Source: a virus
Lineage: Duplodnaviria; Heunggongvirae; Uroviricota; Caudoviricetes
DNA: 17,929 bases
Reading direction: 5' to 3' (one strand)
IMG/VR virus record: IMGVR_UViG_2548876946_000015
Span: 1-17,929 of that record
This document shows, piece after piece, positions 11,700 through 17,929 of the stretch. Numbering within the stretch: position 1 is the first letter of the stretch; each line of letters begins with the position of its first letter. Position numbers and translations under genes: made by a program. The notes under the pieces were generated by a model, which searched no databases, was not told the DNA's origin, and saw only the letters and a list, made by a program, of their open reading frames with translations.

Positions 11700-13940
11700 A
11701 TGACAGATTCAATAAATGCCAATGTTGTAGTGAGTATGCCTTCGCAACTCTTCACTATGGCGCGTTCTTTTAAAGCCGTAGCCAATGGTAAAATTTATAT
11801 CGGTAAAATTGACACTGACCCGGTAAATCCTGAAAACCAGATTCAGGTTTATGTGGAGAACGAAGATGGCTCTCACGTTCCTGTTTCTCAACCAATCATC
11901 ATTAACGCTGCTGGCTACCCTGTATATAACGGACAGATTGCTAAGTTCGTTACTGTACAAGGGCATTCTATGGCTGTTTATGATGCGTACGGTGCTCAGC
12001 AGTTCTATTTTTCGAATGTGCTGAAGTATGACCCTGACCAACTCAGGCAAGATCTTGCATCTCAAGGAGGTGTTAATCTGGTAAACGGAGCTATCTCACA
12101 GGAAGATCTTGTTTTGCAGTCGATCACAAAAATTCCAAGTTATGATAATTCTAACGTAGTCCAGGCGTGGCGCGATAGTGTTGCGACCTACGGGTATGTT
12201 TACTTCTCTAATCATTCAAAAAATCAGATGGTGTACACCGTACCGTCTACAGCTGCTAACGCTTCTTTCCTTGCGAACAGTAAAGTAATCATTGATAAAA
12301 ATGTCACCCTGAGATTCGACAGTGATCTGTACTCACTGTTTAAATCGTTGCAGTACGAGGGGGAGGGTACGTTTGAATTTACGCACCTGAACTTTAAAGC
12401 AACCGGTGGAGAAGTGGATTACCTGGCTAAGCAGGCCATCCTCAACCGAAATCCTATTCGCATGAAGCGAGTGGAATGGTCAGATTGTAAAGTTTATTCC
12501 ATAAATGGTGACACGTTCTTCTATGAAGGTGAAGTCACCATATCCTCAGATAGCGCAGCTATCTTCCCCTTAACTACTGACCGTACAACAGGCCTGTTCG
12601 CACCAATAGATATTGGAGAGCATATTTCTGCACATATTCGTATGGAGTCTCAGGCCGCCTCAGAAGTTGGGATTGTTCTGCGATGCTCTGGTGGTTGGAT
12701 GATGTTCTATGGGGCACCAGGTGCTACACAGTGGTCTTATAGACAGAAACCAATTGGTGGTCCAGTAGCAGAAGGAACTCCATTCCCGCTGCCAGGAGGT
12801 TTACTGTCGTACGCCCCGGGCAAAGCAACCGTTGGCGTATCACTGCAAGGTAAAAACTGGGCGCAGATAACGATGAATGGCGTTGGGATACGTTTGCCCT
12901 TTGATACTGCTGATGTAGGGGATGTATACGAAGTTGGGTTTGTTGCACTGACCACGGCATCTGGAGGTTCTGCGCGTGTAACTGGATTATGCAGCTACAC
13001 CTCTGATAATGGCGTGCACGGTAAGCCTCCACTTAATATCCTTATCCACGGTGATAGTACAGCTGAGGATTTCATTTCCGCGTTCAGCTCGTACATTCCG
13101 CAATTAATGGATGGAGCGAACGGCCACCGTTCATATAGCATTGTAAACAAGGCAGTTGCCGGACAGACAATGAGGCAACAGTTAGATCTCCTGAAGGCTC
13201 AGGGGCCGGGTGATGCTTACATCGTTATTATGGTTGCCGGAACTAACGAAGGGCAGGCAAACCAAAACGGCGATTATATGGCGGCACTGATAGATGAGTT
13301 TGTCTTATATTGCAATGGCCTTGGTCGTATCCCTGTTTGGGTTGAGCCGTGGATGTGGTATAGCCAGTCATTTATTGGAGGGGCTGGCCAGCCATCTTCT
13401 AACTACGACGGTGTCGCAGAGTTGCGAGAAGCTGGTAAACGCCAGATGATGAAATATGGCAATAACGTCATTTGTGTAACAACAACTCACCAGCTCCCGG
13501 CCCCATATCCAGAGTATTTCAATACGCAATACGACCCACTTCTGCGTGATGACATTCACCAAAGCCAGTTAGGGTATCGTCTGTATGCGGAAATTATCTG
13601 CTCTGCCATTATCGACTGGTGGTCGCGTGTTGATTACACGCCAAGAGCAGCTGTTCAATGGTGGGCTGGAACAAACGTAACAGTACAGGCACCGTCAAGT
13701 TTAACTGCCAATTCAATTAATATTAAACTGGCAGCCACTTCATTTGCGAATGGTAATACTGTTCTAACGCTGCCAAGGTGGTGTAGACCAACAGTAACAA
13801 AAAATGTCCCTGTACCGTTCACTGCTGATGGAATATCTTACGGTATGGCGATGGCAACAATAAGCGCATCAACCGGGTCGATAACAATTAATGGATCTAC
13901 TACAGCCTCACCAATATTTTACATTGATGCTTCCTGGTAG
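11700..13940 (+). CDS. Tailspike protein: P22-type N-terminal head-binding domain plus SGNH/GDSL esterase-type domain, 746 aa
   Basis: Start preferred at ATG 11700 ([12 protein letters not shown]...) with GGAG upstream; the track's 11679 start is a TTG. The N-terminal ~110 aa ([39 protein letters not shown]...[15 protein letters not shown]...NVLKYDPDQ) closely resemble the P22 tailspike head-binding domain as recalled. The C-terminal half has SGNH blocks: GDS at 13050-13058 ([14 protein letters not shown]), a Gly block (AVAGQT), GTNE ([11 protein letters not shown]) and DxxH at 13548-13559 ([10 protein letters not shown]). Confidence 0.85.
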
Positions 13941-13967
13941 AAAAAGGCCGCAATGCGGCCATCTTTT
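13941..13967. terminator. Bidirectional terminator between the convergent tailspike and SGNH genes
   Basis: AAAAA-GGCCGCA/TGCGGCC hairpin-ATCTTTT; A-tract on one side and T-tract on the other. Confidence 0.55.
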
Positions 13968-14661
13968 ACTTCACATGTTTATTAATCTCTCTCATCCAAA
14001 CGGCATAGCCATTTTTATTTAAATGCACTCCATCATCAAAGTACAATTCAGATTTTTTATCAGATAAAAAATCTGCAGGAACTTCTATTATATTGCAGTT
14101 AACTATGCGACTACATGTTCTATCAATAATAGAGTTAATCATGCTTATTCTTGAATTGACATGGTCTACGTCTTTTCTTGCCCCGCTTATGATTGGCAAA
14201 ACTTTTAATGCATAAATATTATCAACCTTTGATACACTCTTAAGCAGTTTGTCATAATCATCAAATATTTCCTCTTCGGTTTTCGCACCCATCGCATCGT
14301 TAACTCCACCTTCAATTATCGCAGCTTTATATCCAGACGCCCCATAATTTTCTGATAGAGTTAGGATCTGATGTATAGAGTATCCTCCGACCCCCATATT
14401 AACATATTTAAAGTTTAACCCATATGGTGACATTCCTTGTATGAGCGAGTCGCCATAAACCACAATGTCGCCGTCAGCTTGATTAGCATTCATTTTTTTA
14501 AAATCTAGCATCACAGCCTGAAAGTCGTTAACTTTTTTTTGAGATAAATAATTTCTAATTGAACGAACAGACAATACTATAATAACTATTGCAATCAGAA
14601 TAAACAGCATTGCCAAATATTTATTTGCTTGAGACTTTCTATTTGTTTGTTTTGACTTCAT
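13966..14661 (-). CDS. Membrane-anchored SGNH/GDSL-family hydrolase (esterase or acyl-transfer accessory domain), 231 aa
   Basis: ATG at 14661 with AAAGGA 7 nt upstream. One N-terminal TM helix (YLAMLFILIAIVIIVLSV). SGNH blocks I (VVYGDSLIQG), II (NMGVGGYS), III (EGGVNDA) and V (DDGVHLNKNGY). Very AT-rich. Confidence 0.8.
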   Translation of the reverse strand: MKSKQTNRKSQANKYLAMLFILIAIVIIVLSVRSIRNYLSQKKVNDFQAVMLDFKKMNANQADGDIVVYGDSLIQGMSPYGLNFKYVNMGVGGYSIHQILTLSENYGASGYKAAIIEGGVNDAMGAKTEEEIFDDYDKLLKSVSKVDNIYALKVLPIISGARKDVDHVNSRISMINSIIDRTCSRIVNCNIIEVPADFLSDKKSELYFDDGVHLNKNGYAVWMREINKHVK

Positions 14662-14745
14662 TGCATTTTCCTTTTAATAAGGTTTAAGGTTAAAAATATA
14701 TTTACGCTTCAAATCAACGAATTGAGAAAATTATTCAGCCAACCA

Positions 14746-15024
14746 CTAACTAGACTTGCAATCTAATCTTATATATGATCTGAGTAAGAGTGTAAAAATC
14801 CGCTTAATCCTTCTTAAGTAAAAATCGGAAAAAGAAAATTTACCGCTATTTAAATTTTTAAAAATAATACTTGAAATTAAAAGGCTAGATATTATGAAAA
14901 ATAAATCAAACCCATTGAACTCTCCAGAAAATGCGCTTGGGAAAGCGTGAAACATCACAACAGCGACTGCTCTTAAACCATCTATACCAGCTCTATACTT
15001 TATCATTTTTATTGTCCAATTCAT
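14746..15024 (-). pseudogene. Remnant of an acyltransferase-3 (AT3) gene: N-terminal ~90 codons only
   Basis: Translation MIKYRAGIDGLRAVAVVMFHAFP...FNGFDLFFIISSLLISSIIFKNLNSGKFSFSDFYLRRIKRIF matches the conserved N-terminal signature of AT3/OafA/OatA-type acyltransferases (R...H motif, VDxFFxISGxLI, FYxRRxxRI). The ORF stops after 92 codons, 85 bp before the SGNH gene, and is in the same reading frame as the SGNH ORF. Confidence 0.55.
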
Positions 15025-15313
15025 CTACAGTGAAAGAGCAAAGAAAAACAATGCAATATATCTCATGTGACTACTCCTAAAATAAATTTAATGATAATAA
15101 CATCATGAGGATAAATTTAGAAGTGGGAAGATCGGAAATGCTCATTGAGCAGCAGAAAAAATATCACTGACTCTGTATACACATACAGTATTTTTTGTCT
15201 GTTATTGATCATTGGATACTTGAGCCTAGCGTAAAAGTAATATGAATGATACAGTATGCTTATATAATTGATTTTTGCTCTCGGTGTAAGTTCGGATTGT
15301 ATTATATAACCAG

Positions 15314-15339
15314 AAAATATCCCCAGAACTAAGCTGGGG
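15314..15339 (-). terminator. Terminator after the AT3 acyltransferase gene (minus strand)
   Basis: Minus strand reads CCCCAG-CTTAGTT-CTGGGG followed by ATATTTT, immediately after the stop at 15354-15356. Confidence 0.5.
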
Positions 15340-15353
15340 ATTCATGTCATATG

Positions 15354-16394
15354 TCAGCTTGCTAGTGCGATCTTCCTAAGCCTGTGACCTATATTTATAG
15401 ATGGTTTTTCAATTACCTTATAAGAAATAGTTGCTAGTGCGATCGTAGCTAATAGGTATAAAACAAAAATAATAAAATTAAAATCTGTGTCCATGTCTAT
15501 ACTGACAGATACAATCTCTAAAAAGAATGGGTGAATCAAGTATACAGAGTAACTTATCGATCCCAGGAAAACCAATAATCCTACATTCAATTTTACCCGT
15601 GTAGTGAGCAATAGCGTCAATACTATGCCTGTAAGATAGCTAGCAATATAGGAGGAAGCATTTTCCCCATGCCCATAGTCTTTATTGTAGGACATTAAGC
15701 AAATCGGAGCAATCGCCACTAGGAATGTTATTAAAAATACAATGCACATATTTCTTTCTGATCTCGATGCAATCCCAATGCTCACTGAACGCCATAAGCT
15801 ACCAAAGAACATTAATGACATAGCTAGCGGTATTGCCACAGGAACTTTTTTATCAAGAACGAATCTCACGTATGAGAAAGCAAGAGCGGTTGCAATAAGT
15901 CCTATAGAAATTAAAAATAAAGAAACCTTACTCTTTAATAAATTTACTTTGAAAAGAAACGCACAGGAAGCATAGAAGAACAACTCAATTATTAGCGTCC
16001 AATAAACACCAAACATATCTGGAGATCTCAGTAAAGATTGAAGCATGGTAATATTAGACAACAGAGTTCTTATATCAAGTGGTCTATGAGTTACAAACAA
16101 AAAAGTAAAGGCCGCCAGAAATACTGAAAACCAGTAAGCGGGATATAGTCTAAAAAACCTTGATATAATGAACCCGGATATCGCTCTTTTCCCTTCCTTT
16201 AGGCTGTAAGGTATTACCATGCCACTTAACACAAAGAAGCAAACAACACCAACCTGACCAAAGTTAACATGCTTAAATAAAAAACTGTTATGCAATGGTG
16301 TTCGCTCTATGAAATGTGCACATGCAACCATCAGGGCTGCAAGTCCACGCAAAGAGTCTAGGAATTCTAGACGATTTCCATTTCTTATAGACAT
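15354..16394 (-). CDS. Acyltransferase family 3 (AT3) integral membrane O-acyltransferase, 346 aa; candidate O-antigen acetyltransferase for lysogenic conversion
   Basis: ATG at 16394. N-terminal LDSLRGLAALMVACAHF (R...H catalytic signature), FGQVGVVCFFVLSGMVI and about ten hydrophobic helices. AT-rich. Located between tailspike and integrase, where the Sf6 oac-type gene lies. Confidence 0.8.
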   Translation of the reverse strand: MSIRNGNRLEFLDSLRGLAALMVACAHFIERTPLHNSFLFKHVNFGQVGVVCFFVLSGMVIPYSLKEGKRAISGFIISRFFRLYPAYWFSVFLAAFTFLFVTHRPLDIRTLLSNITMLQSLLRSPDMFGVYWTLIIELFFYASCAFLFKVNLLKSKVSLFLISIGLIATALAFSYVRFVLDKKVPVAIPLAMSLMFFGSLWRSVSIGIASRSERNMCIVFLITFLVAIAPICLMSYNKDYGHGENASSYIASYLTGIVLTLLLTTRVKLNVGLLVFLGSISYSVYLIHPFFLEIVSVSIDMDTDFNFIIFVLYLLATIALATISYKVIEKPSINIGHRLRKIALAS

Positions 16395-16710
16395 TAAAGA
16401 TACCTAAGTTAAGTGTAGTAATAGGATTAATTTTAACAGCATGATTCTGTTGATCAATGGATAAGCAGCGTGTTTTGAAGTTGATCTGATTTTTACTATG
16501 ATTATATTGTGTTCTCGCACAGTATTTTATCGTAAGTGCACCATGGGCTTCTATCTCCAGCAGCAGAACTAGTTGAAGATAGTGTGTCAATCGACAAGAG
16601 CCTTATTGCTCCAATCTCAGTCACGTACATGATGATATCCGTCAGGTCATTATCAACGAAGAGTGTTATGGTTAGTTTGATTATTGTGCGGTGATGTGAG
16701 AAAAACTTAG

Positions 16711-16740
16711 AAAAACAAAGTCTTGCACTGGATTGCAAGG
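16711..16740 (-). terminator. Terminator downstream of the integrase gene (minus strand)
   Basis: Minus strand reads CCTTGCA-ATCCAG-TGCAAG followed by ACTTTGTTTTT, about 30 nt after the integrase stop. Confidence 0.45.
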
Positions 16741-16771
16741 CTTTGCGCTATTCGATTGTGGTTGAGGCTGA

Positions 16772-17929
16772 TCACTTCACCTTTTCATCAAGCCAATCCG
16801 CCCACCACTGCATCATTTCTCTGCGCTTATCGAGATACTGAGCGTGGTTGTAAATCCCGCGCACAGATCCGCCGTTGGCATGTGCCAGTTGCACTTCAAT
16901 AGCGTCAGCAGGCCATTCGTGCTCGTTCATAATCGTGCTGAATTCATGCCTGAATCCGTGACCGCTTTCCAGACCTTCATAGCCGATTTGTTTGATCACA
17001 AGCAGTACAGCGTTCTCGCAAATTGGCTTCTTCTTATCGTTGCGCCCGGCAAAAACAAACTCTGACACTGGTTTAGTGATTGAGCTTAGCGTAGTGAGAA
17101 GTTCAATCACCTGGTCTGACATAGGAACCACATGAATTTTGCGTCCCTTCATCACACTGGCGTCGATGGTGATAATCCTGTTTTCAAAATCGACGTTCTT
17201 CCATAGCATGGAACGAAGCTCTTTCGTTCTTAGGGCTGTGTAGCGTAAAACTTTGGTCGCAATGAGCGATACGATACTTCCTGAAAATGTTGCCAGTGCT
17301 TTGTTGAATGCCGGGATCTGGTCTGCAGGAAGAAACGGGAAGTTCTTCTTGCGGTATCCCTTCATGGCGTCAGCAAGGTCAGGTGCCGGGTTATATTTAG
17401 CCCTACCAGTGACAATAGCGTAACGGAAAACCTCGCCGCATCTTCTGCGGGCTTTATTTGCTCGCTCCATTGCACCGCGATCTTCAAATCTGCGGATTAC
17501 TTCCAGTAGTTGCATCGGCTCAATATCCTGAATTTCAAGACCGCCGATGATGGGTAAAATGTCGTCATCAAACATTTTTGCAAGTTCATTTGCATAGCCT
17601 ACTGACCAGACTTGCTTCTTGTGCTCGTACCATTCCTTGTAAATGGCGCTAAAGGAATTGTTGTTAGACGAAGCCTTTTTCGCCTTTACCGGATCGATGC
17701 CAACCGAGATGTCTTTCCTCGCAGTCCATGCCTTATCCCTTGCTTCCTGCAAAGTCATAAGCGGATATTTTCCGATGGTCAGGATTTTCTCCTTACCGTC
17801 AATCTTGTAGCGAAGCTGCCATACCTTTTTCCCTGATACAGGGACATAAAGGTACAGGCCATTACCATCGAGAAGGCGGTATGGTTTTTCTTTCGGCTTT
17901 GCTGCTTCAATCTGCTTAACGGTGAGCAT
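16772..17929 (-). CDS. int: Tyrosine recombinase / phage integrase, 385 aa
   Basis: ATG is the last three bases of the window. N-terminus MLTVKQIEAAKPKEKPYRLLDGNGLYLYV is typical of the P4-type integrase arm-binding domain. C-terminal catalytic signature HGFRHEF ... RGIYNHAQY (HxxR and Tyr). Confidence 0.85.
   Translation of the reverse strand: MLTVKQIEAAKPKEKPYRLLDGNGLYLYVPVSGKKVWQLRYKIDGKEKILTIGKYPLMTLQEARDKAWTARKDISVGIDPVKAKKASSNNNSFSAIYKEWYEHKKQVWSVGYANELAKMFDDDILPIIGGLEIQDIEPMQLLEVIRRFEDRGAMERANKARRRCGEVFRYAIVTGRAKYNPAPDLADAMKGYRKKNFPFLPADQIPAFNKALATFSGSIVSLIATKVLRYTALRTKELRSMLWKNVDFENRIITIDASVMKGRKIHVVPMSDQVIELLTTLSSITKPVSEFVFAGRNDKKKPICENAVLLVIKQIGYEGLESGHGFRHEFSTIMNEHEWPADAIEVQLAHANGGSVRGIYNHAQYLDKRREMMQWWADWLDEKVK

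Follow-up and report, generated by a model that had tools for sequence, protein, structure and literature searches.

The window examined here is the whole 17,929-nucleotide stretch of IMG/VR virus record IMGVR_UViG_2548876946_000015. It covers late genes and the right end of a P22-like (Sf6/HK620-type, Lederbergvirus) Escherichia coli prophage located at argW. On the minus strand, the integrase gene intS is followed by a gene for a 346-amino-acid (aa) protein of the AT3 acyltransferase family (AT3-346), a 92-codon open reading frame (ORF) and a gene for a 231-aa SGNH protein (SGNH-231), toward which a tailspike gene converges from the plus strand (Table 1). The 92-codon and 231-aa ORFs had been noticed in an earlier sequence-only reading, which gave their positions correctly. 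Comparison with intact relatives indicates that the 92-codon ORF is the stump of a 660-residue phage O-antigen acetylase gene, which arose once and has been drifting since.

Table 1. Features of the integrase-tailspike interval and its flanks in the window (nt, nucleotides)
Feature	Position	Strand	Remarks
P22-type tailspike gene, SGNH esterase-like receptor-binding part	11700..13940	+	Convergent with the SGNH gene
Bidirectional intrinsic terminator	13946..13960		Common to the SGNH and convergent tailspike genes; GGCCGC-loop-GCGGCC stem, T-tracts on both strands
SGNH-231, putative membrane-anchored SGNH/GDSL protein, 231 aa, intact	13966..14661	-	Predicted transmembrane helix at residues ~15-32 and periplasmic catalytic domain
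Ancestral 47-nt intergenic spacer	14662..14708	-	From acetylase stop to SGNH start, with the SGNH ribosome-binding site AAAGGA
Pseudogene 3' piece	14709..14797	-	Last ~28 codons and TGA 14711-14709; +1 frame relative to the 5' piece
92-codon ORF	14746..15024	-	Composed of 6 spurious codons at the start, 71 ancestral codons and 15 out-of-frame codons at the end
Pseudogene 5' piece	14798..15006	-	Codons 1-74 of the 660-aa OafA-type AT3-SGNH O-antigen acetylase gene
Spacer, AT3-346 cassette to pseudogene	15025..15318	-	Perfect LexA-box core at 15173-15188
Intrinsic terminator-like hairpin	15319..15341	-	Directly past the AT3-346 stop; 3' edge of the cassette
AT3-346, putative AT3-only O-acetyltransferase gene, 346 aa, intact	15354..16394	-	Oac-type architecture
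humD (umuD-like, S24 peptidase) 5' relic, about 108 nt	16519..16650	+	Degenerate SOS box (ACAG to ACAA)
IntS-type integrase gene	16772..17929	-	Prophage end at tRNA-Arg (argW)

The virion genes and the integrase match Sf6/HK620-type phages at 94-96%, and positions 13900-16500 have no such match. This interval returned nothing in a megablast search of 50,697 phage genomes and is known from prophages only. The 2.6-kb stretch is found identical in three complete E. coli chromosomes, where it lies between the phage tailspike gene and intS, beside tRNA-Arg (argW), yfdC and mlaA. The GC content is 28-39% over 13900-16400, compared with 45-51% in the tailspike and integrase genes, a composition typical of an imported accessory region, and a low-GC O-antigen modification ('lysogenic conversion') region fills the integrase-tailspike interval. 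The PGAP annotation of this interval includes the AT3 and SGNH genes and leaves the short ORF unannotated. No RNA family of Rfam (E<=1) is found in 13800-16800. The window arrangement is present in identical form in three complete E. coli chromosomes, three IMG/VR contigs, two metagenome contigs and several Logan contigs, and an assembly artefact is excluded by these copies in independent chromosomes and contigs.

The ancestral state of the locus is observed in six independent contigs (L003-L008) that carry the nearest non-identical homologue of the SGNH protein (P0024, 76% identity). These contigs contain an uninterrupted 660-aa gene with the PF01757 (AT3) and PF19040 ('SGNH domain fused to AT3') domains. 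A separate ~228-231-aa PF13472-type SGNH gene with its own ribosome-binding site starts 47-56 nt past the stop codon of the 660-aa gene and is followed by a convergent esterase tailspike gene. In blastn alignments, window 15014..14795 corresponds to L003 693..922 (83%) and window 14800..12066 to L003 2593..5329 (78%), and L003 ~923..2598, which comprises codons ~75-632 of the 660-aa gene, has no counterpart in the window. Anchor-to-anchor arithmetic between the window and L003 yields a net loss of 1,676 bp, which is frameshifting (mod 3 = 2). Since L003-L008 are colinear with the window but for this loss, the proposal of the sequence-only reading that the ORF arose from an OafA-type AT3-SGNH fusion gene by a large internal deletion, and not by a point nonsense mutation, is borne out. 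The alignment to full-length relatives that it had suggested for locating the breakpoints, made against L003, places the deletion junction within the T-run 14798-14794. The parental sequences have GA(A/T)(T/A)TTT in common at this position, and the join was made at this short T-rich microhomology.

Both ends of the acetylase gene are recognizable on the two sides of the junction. In tblastn searches with the 660-aa protein, residues 1-78 align to the window at 74% identity, and residues 632-659 align to window 14798..14715. The 5' piece contains a further 9-bp in-frame deletion between 14965 and 14964, in transmembrane (TM) helix 1, and the 3' piece contains two new stops in the ancestral frame. 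The intergenic spacer is colinear with L003 2685..2730, with the ribosome-binding site in both. The loss of codons ~75-632 took with it almost the whole of PF19040 (aa 412-649 of the relative). Two variants, L009 and L010, are 98-99% identical to the window over 3-3.7 kb without gaps and exhibit the same junction. At the DNA level, the 660-aa gene itself weakly resembles BTP1 gtrC and the acetylase gene of a Pseudomonas phage, and none of the relatives of its protein sought in one genome per species exceeds 47% identity (Massilia and other betaproteobacteria).

The AT3 signal of the 92-codon ORF is real but not clean, as the sequence-only reading had called it. The match to PF01757 (E=2.3e-4, 20.8 bits) is fragmentary, covering model positions 2-81 of 326, and lies below the gathering cut-off of 31 bits. 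The complete domain spans ~326 positions with about 10 TM helices, and only one segment of the ORF passes the hydropathy threshold used, such that the ORF falls outside PF01757 by both score and coverage. A better match is obtained with phrog_6705 'O-antigen acetylase' (E=3e-23, positions 4-80 of a 647-position profile), which, along with the 83% nucleotide and 74% amino-acid identity to the 660-aa gene, documents the descent of the remnant. Database relatives of the ORF display 55-66% identity and the motif string YRxDIDGLRAVAV...FHAFP...GGFxGVDxFFVISGxLIS...FYxRRIKRIFPAL. The ancestral start is ATG 15006 (MIKYR...), and the first six codons of the listed ORF are spurious; the ATG at 15024 is missing from L009 and L010. 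The 15 C-terminal residues (TLLLRSYIRLDCKSS) come from the 3' end of the ancestral gene read out of frame. As had been described, the SGNH gene begins 85 nt downstream in the same frame as the ORF (an 84-nt gap; (15024-14661) mod 3 = 0). The gap was said to contain at least three in-frame stops; it contains two (TAA 14733-14731 and TAA 14676-14674), and three are reached only when the TAG of the ORF is counted.

The sequence motifs of the enzyme have decayed in the remnant. Two motifs have been defined for this family, R/K-X10-H in TM helix 1 and the fused-type GG-F/Y-xGV-D in TM helix 2 (PMC7448272). R12-X10-H23 of the intact 660-aa relative is R18-X7-H26 in the remnant as a result of the 9-bp deletion, and GGFIGVD, intact in the 660-aa protein, now reads GEFNGFD. 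Further changes convert ISG to ISS and RIFPAL to RIFTLL. Relative to L009, the remnant has 1.8% substitutions, of which none is synonymous and five are non-synonymous, including one that removes ATG 15024. The flanking spacers differ from L009 by 1.5-3.6%. The corresponding values are 0.38% for AT3-346 and 0.57% for the SGNH gene, each with three synonymous substitutions and one non-synonymous substitution. The substitution density of the remnant is 3-5 times that of the neighbouring genes, and Fisher tests of the remnant against these genes give p=0.02 in both contrasts. The remnant thus evolves like the surrounding non-coding DNA. Against L003, dN/dS is mildly raised in the remnant 5' piece (0.28) compared with the SGNH gene (omega 0.15); the L009 comparison is preferred over this one because most of the L003 branch predates the deletion. 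The remnant is best described as a relic, and not as a functional member, of the OafA-type fused AT3-SGNH acetylases, and the pseudogene exemplifies the ordinary decay of genes in accessory (moron) regions of prophages.

SGNH-231 is assigned to the SGNH/GDSL superfamily (PF13472) by score, catalytic blocks and fold. It matches PF13472 with 52.8 bits (cut-off, 32.9 bits) and also PF00657, and leaves PF19040 unmatched. In PHROGs it belongs to phrog_14008, whose function is unknown, and no NCBIfam model matches the SGNH protein, AT3-346 or the 595-aa fusion protein described below. The hydropathy profile contains one strongly hydrophobic N-terminal segment behind five Lys/Arg residues. Residues G70-D71-S72, G90/G92/G93, G119-x-N121-D122 and D210-x-x-H213 of blocks I, II, III and V, respectively, are invariant in 26 homologues, as are the two Cys residues. 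The AlphaFold2 model (pLDDT 88) is matched by Foldseek to SGNH esterases with a probability of 1.0. In both sequence and fold, the nearest solved relatives are PAF-acetylhydrolase-like proteins and Bacteroides sialate O-acetylesterases; esterases thus come first among the neighbours in the Protein Data Bank, with the C-terminal transferase domain of OatA close behind (Foldseek rank 12). The 27 full-length homologues are 212-245 aa in length and none contains AT3; one further homologue is a 139-aa fragment. In a HMMER search of 1.8 billion representatives, almost all of the best 150 of 1,540 matches are about 175-320 aa, and P0051 is the one long exception among those 150: this 462-aa fragment belongs to the fused type. 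SGNH-231 is a member of a conserved family of canonical SGNH proteins, about 220 aa long and TM-anchored, that are encoded convergently to a tailspike gene. Judged from the relatives, the SGNH gene was separate before the deletion and is not an orphaned fusion domain.

The convergent tailspike consists of a Head_binding domain and a receptor-binding part with a weak PF13472 match at aa 458-635. GDS, G, GxN and DxxH motifs at aa ~455-640 in this part identify the tailspike as an esterase type. L004 and E. coli SRY149 (L091) encode receptor-binding parts with 87-97% identity to that of the window, and no sequenced phage of the collection searched exceeds 28% identity to it. Residues 122-753 are 87% identical to tailspikes with another N-terminal adaptor (Tail_spike_N, of non-P22 virions), which points to an exchange of the receptor-binding module between phage types. 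SGNH-231 was considered as a paralogue of the SGNH part of the tailspike, and BLASTP revealed no significant similarity between the two. By comparison of loci, the SGNH gene is inherited together with the tailspike.

In the loci sampled, the SGNH module is found in six contexts. In context (a), it stands between the OafA-type 660-aa gene and the esterase tailspike gene (L003-L008). Context (a') combines a different OafA-type gene (611 aa) with SGNH and an esterase tailspike in an apparently non-P22-type prophage (L100-L103, L120). Context (b) is a single 595-aa AT3::SGNH fusion protein, present in SRY149 and in four IMG/VR contigs (90-91% identical), and context (c) is the window type. SGNH stands alone in the remaining two, beside a tailspike with the AT3 gene absent in context (d) (L092-L095, L107-L109, L118, L119) and in an Aeromonas prophage in context (e). 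Residues 371-595 of the 595-aa fusion correspond to SGNH residues 7-231, including the TM helix, with 72-77% identity. As the same module is fused behind AT3 in SRY149, the earlier view that the N-terminal TM helix of the SGNH protein corresponds to the helix linking the two domains of fused proteins, their 11th, holds. The AT3 part of the 595-aa fusion is an unrelated, AT3-only-type domain. Contexts (a), (b) and (c) have the tailspike receptor-binding part in common (87-97% aa identity), and each has one intact AT3 and this SGNH. Among 5,426 complete E. coli genomes, this SGNH occurs in six, with three genomes for each of the window and fused types.

Synonymous divergence (dS) from L003/L004 is strongly uneven along the module: 0.36 at 14798-15006, 0.94 at 13966-14661 and 1.66 at 12042-13937, the part encoding the tailspike receptor-binding region. 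The window tailspike protein is 96.6% identical to that of SRY149. These values point to a module pieced together by recombination, with breakpoints close to the SGNH gene. In another contig, L117 (IMGVR_UViG_2711768184_000001, 224-1769), the fused AT3::SGNH gene is apparently frameshifted and C-terminally truncated; this module family may have decayed here as well, or the sequence may contain an error. Escherichia phage vB_EcoP-683R2 (L096, 4481-5017) encodes a TM-less 178-aa SGNH esterase with 28% identity, convergent with its tailspike; since this phage carries one too, SGNH genes recur in this slot of P22-like phages.

AT3-346 matches PF01757 over its full length (aa 10-325, E=2e-30) and phrog_3333 (E=5e-56). 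It contains R16-X10-H27, has no C-terminal extracytoplasmic domain and thus has the characters of an AT3-only protein. Its homologues are 346-365 aa in length, and most of the 120 best-scoring ones fall within 330-400 aa, apart from some shorter fragments, which are few. The gene lies in a portable cassette (~15319..16483) composed of a promoter-like site, the 346-aa gene and a terminator, with homologues of about 82% nucleotide identity in other prophages. Homology to these other cassettes stops at 15319 (L097) or 15281 (L099). In L099, the cassette is located in a P22-like int-humD context with any SGNH gene absent, and in L098 at the end of a myovirus-type tail module. In L097 (690-6048), an 89%-identical AT3-346 homologue is located 583 nt upstream of an unrelated 227-aa signal-peptide SGNH gene. 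This SGNH gene converges with a 639-aa AT3+PF19040 gene and a 378-aa GDSL gene, and together they form a densely packed group of acetylation-related genes with no tailspike context.

In the window, the cassette and a ~300-bp spacer stand where L003 has ~200 bp ahead of the 660-aa gene. Window 16510..16434 corresponds to L003 419..495, and homology picks up again at 15014. The relatives contain an intact 129-aa humD gene between int and the acetylase gene. The window retains only the 5' relic, in which 16650..16519 corresponds to L091 3515..3645 (75%); the rest of humD is missing by comparison with L099 and L003. The spacer 15025-15318 has no similarity to the relatives beyond the 17-19-nt LexA (SOS) box CTGTATACACATACAG (TACTGTATGTGTATACAGAG on the minus strand), which precedes the former start of the acetylase gene by about 165 nt. 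An identical box precedes humD in SRY149 (L091 3642), and similar boxes are present in L003, L093 and L099. The LexA box may be a leftover of the humD promoter or may put the remnant/SGNH transcript under SOS control.

An ancestor with the order humD, acetylase-660, SGNH and tailspike would have acquired the AT3-346 cassette by recombination, which would have made the 660-aa gene redundant and led to its deletion (non-orthologous replacement). The AT3-346 cassette probably replaced the lost acetylase in this way; the reverse order, with loss first and compensation afterwards, is equally possible. A search of IMG/VR and JGI metagenomes with the exact 32-mer 15025-15056 for an intermediate, in which the AT3-346 cassette and the same spacer would accompany an intact 660-aa gene, found none, and all five matches were of the deleted window type.

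The best explanation as a whole, in which the pseudogene reading of the short ORF is combined with an account of the surviving module, is considered highly probable. In this account, AT3-346 would carry acetyl groups from cytoplasmic acetyl-CoA across the inner membrane, and the periplasmic SGNH protein would act in trans with AT3-346 on the O-antigen in a split version of the OafA/OatA design. The resulting O-antigen change would alter the receptor recognised by the esterase tailspike of the phage itself. That SGNH-231 may now work with the upstream AT3-346, as the sequence-only reading had suggested, is plausible. A split mechanism is favoured because an AT3 of any of three lineages always accompanies SGNH in the tailspike clade of the window and is fused to it once. 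The natural AT3::SGNH fusions of SRY149 and the four IMG/VR contigs all adjoin the same tailspike receptor-binding part, and there is an experimental precedent in which the AT3-only protein WecH feeds the separate SGNH protein PatB (review PMC9558356). An OafA-like mechanism split between AT3-346 and SGNH-231 is nevertheless judged evenly balanced between right and wrong.

Next to nothing speaks against the pseudogene part of this explanation. Several observations weigh against a partnership of the two proteins. SGNH homologues with 40-48% identity are found beside tailspikes without a nearby AT3 gene in several prophage lineages, and AT3-346 homologues occur without any SGNH gene. The acetylase of the ancestral locus already had its own SGNH domain. 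A terminator-like hairpin divides AT3-346 from the SGNH gene, and a consensus scan recognised no minus-strand promoter within 14662-15318. The SGNH gene does have its own ribosome-binding site, AAAGGA, 7-8 nt upstream of its ATG, as the sequence-only reading had stated. In some E. coli, the SGNH gene is split by frameshifts into ORFs of 99+133 aa (P0317/P0324) and 56+175 aa (P0318/P0336). About 20 contigs carry the 99-aa fragment versus 126 with the intact allele, and a variant of the gene exists in E. albertii. From these two frameshift-split alleles, the SGNH gene was inactivated at least twice in window-type prophages. The terminator, the lack of a recognised promoter and the split alleles call for caution in regarding the SGNH gene as indispensable or co-expressed. 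Moreover, the oxyanion hole of SGNH-231 is canonical (block II Gly and block III GxND), unlike the atypical oxyanion hole of OafA and OafB (PMC7448272), and its nearest solved relatives are O-acetylesterases.

The main alternative, which is possible though on the doubtful side, is that SGNH-231 is an autonomous, anchored periplasmic O-acetylesterase that strips the O-acetyl groups recognised by the esterase tailspike of its own phage. In that case, deacetylation would be the route of lysogenic conversion and would serve to exclude superinfecting phages or to release progeny. The AT3 genes nearby would be conversion genes in their own right, or their products would act on a different position, comparable to the acetyltransferases PatA/PatB beside the esterase Ape1. 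The constant neighbour of SGNH is in fact the tailspike and not AT3, as the solitary pairs of context (d) demonstrate, and the SGNH variants track the tailspike receptor-binding types. Several of the tailspikes paired with SGNH are also SGNH esterases. Esterase tailspikes with a requirement for O-acetylated receptors are known, for example G7C gp63.1, as cited in PMC13123978. The canonical oxyanion hole, the top sequence and structure neighbours among PAF-AH-type and sialate O-acetylesterases and the SGNH domain of the ancestral acetylase itself fit an esterase as well. A conserved natural AT3 fusion with OafA-like topology is, however, hard to explain for a pure esterase, and members of the clade with the tailspike type of the window invariably have an AT3. 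The OatA transferase domain is among the structural matches too, and the literature searched yielded no published case of such a conversion. A broader view, which is entertained tentatively, is that the phrog_14008-type SGNH is a portable periplasmic O-antigen-conversion module that travels with the receptor-binding part and works AT3-fused, AT3-adjacent or alone.

The remaining two alternatives concern the short ORF and the origin of the SGNH gene. It is very unlikely that the 86-92-codon ORF has been kept as an independent gene whose product, an AT3 fragment with a new function, is a small membrane protein that is conserved and functional. All window-type loci, including variants that are 95% identical in protein, do contain this ORF with an identical stop, and gene callers report it on 40 or more contigs; this conservation is accounted for by a young deletion with about 2% neutral divergence. 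The exclusively non-synonymous differences from L009 at the substitution density of flanking non-coding DNA, the unconserved upstream ATG, the broken catalytic motifs, the out-of-frame C-terminal residues and the lack of a PGAP annotation are at odds with such a gene.

Scarcely credible is the model of the sequence-only reading in which the SGNH gene is the C-terminal domain of the ancestral fusion, freed by the deletion and using a new ribosome-binding site: the shared frame, the fused-type AT3 origin of the remnant and the equivalence of the SGNH N-terminal helix to the 11th TM helix of the fusions speak for it, but it is refuted by L003-L008, in which the fusion gene and a separate SGNH gene lie side by side in different frames, and the ancestral 3' end, stop codon and intergenic spacer persist between the two ORFs. 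The PF19040 domain of the 660-aa protein has no significant similarity to the PF13472-type product of the downstream gene, and the remnant and the downstream gene do not provide the 11th TM helix and the PF19040 domain in one polypeptide as the fusion does. The frame identity that had been taken as a sign of common origin is also lost as an argument, as the SGNH start of L003 is in the +1 frame relative to the 660-aa gene. The SGNH domain of the fusion was deleted outright. The shared frame of the window results from the net 1,676-bp deletion (mod 3 = 2) together with the 9-bp deletion and is a matter of chance with a one-in-three prior.

The 660-aa parent has the same architecture as OafA and OafB (GtrC family II, Salmonella) and the phage acetylases of phrog_6705 (BTP1 GtrC and the Pseudomonas phage protein). 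It likewise contains PF01757, an 11th TM helix, PF19040 and the R-X10-H and GG-F/Y-xGV-D motifs and is encoded in a prophage conversion region. Unlike OafA and OafB, the window retains only ~74 N-terminal and ~28 C-terminal codons, with both motifs damaged, and the 660-type loci carry an extra, separate SGNH gene that is undescribed for OafA or OafB. AT3-346 resembles Oac of Shigella phage Sf6 (phrog_3333) as a stand-alone 10-TM-type AT3 protein with R-X10-H, and like oac it is located beside the integrase gene of an Sf6-like prophage, in the same genomic slot. It differs from Sf6 Oac in that it is no close homologue, with no tblastn match at 1e-8, and in that it is accompanied by a separate SGNH gene. 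Its best phage match has 35% identity and is from an Erwinia phage.

By analogy, the pair of AT3-346 and SGNH-231 would resemble PatA/PatB, AlgI/AlgX and the experimental WecH-PatB combination, in which a membrane acyl translocase is paired with a separately encoded periplasmic SGNH protein. A transferase gene beside an SGNH esterase gene, as in PatAB/Ape1, is a comparable layout. The known natural split systems use MBOAT proteins, whereas the window has AT3, and a coupling here is suggested by gene neighbourhood and natural fusion. SGNH-231 has no sequence relation to the SGNH proteins of the split systems beyond the SGNH fold (PatB, E=0.03). The window tailspike shares SGNH motifs with SGNH esterase tailspikes (G7C gp63.1 and the SGNH receptor-binding proteins of Klebsiella prophages). 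SGNH-231 differs from these tailspikes in that it is not a virion protein, having a TM anchor and no tail-attachment domain. SGNH receptor-binding proteins and adjacent SGNH genes are reported to be common in temperate phages, and SGNH genes adjoining receptor-binding proteins receive a passing mention for Klebsiella prophages (PMC13123978). In the literature searched, AT3-SGNH fusions, MBOAT+SGNH pairs and SGNH tailspikes are described, and neither a natural AT3 and separate-SGNH conversion module nor a prophage O-antigen deacetylase was found.

The main use of the pseudogene is a correction of annotation, as the 86-92-aa 'protein' called on dozens of contigs is no gene. The surviving SGNH/AT3 module is of moderate interest as a testable variant of known O-antigen acetylation systems. 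No description was found of the modular use of one anchored SGNH protein with three unrelated AT3 solutions, namely an upstream OafA-type fusion gene, a direct AT3::SGNH fusion and an AT3-only cassette with a relic of the first, in addition to solo forms. In one form of the portable-module reading, the SGNH protein would be part of the first natural split OafA-like acetyltransferase made of AT3 and a separate SGNH protein, and it would be able to combine with various AT3 proteins, perhaps including those of the host such as WecH. In the other form, it would be a prophage O-antigen deacetylase that erases the receptor of the esterase tailspike of its own phage. Whether AT3-only enzymes need an SGNH or other partner and what a fused SGNH domain adds are open questions in AT3 reviews (PMC9558356), for which these prophages are a small, natural and genetically tractable system. 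In the same prophages, it could also be examined whether lysogens of temperate phages with esterase tailspikes are protected through the addition or the removal of O-acetyl groups.

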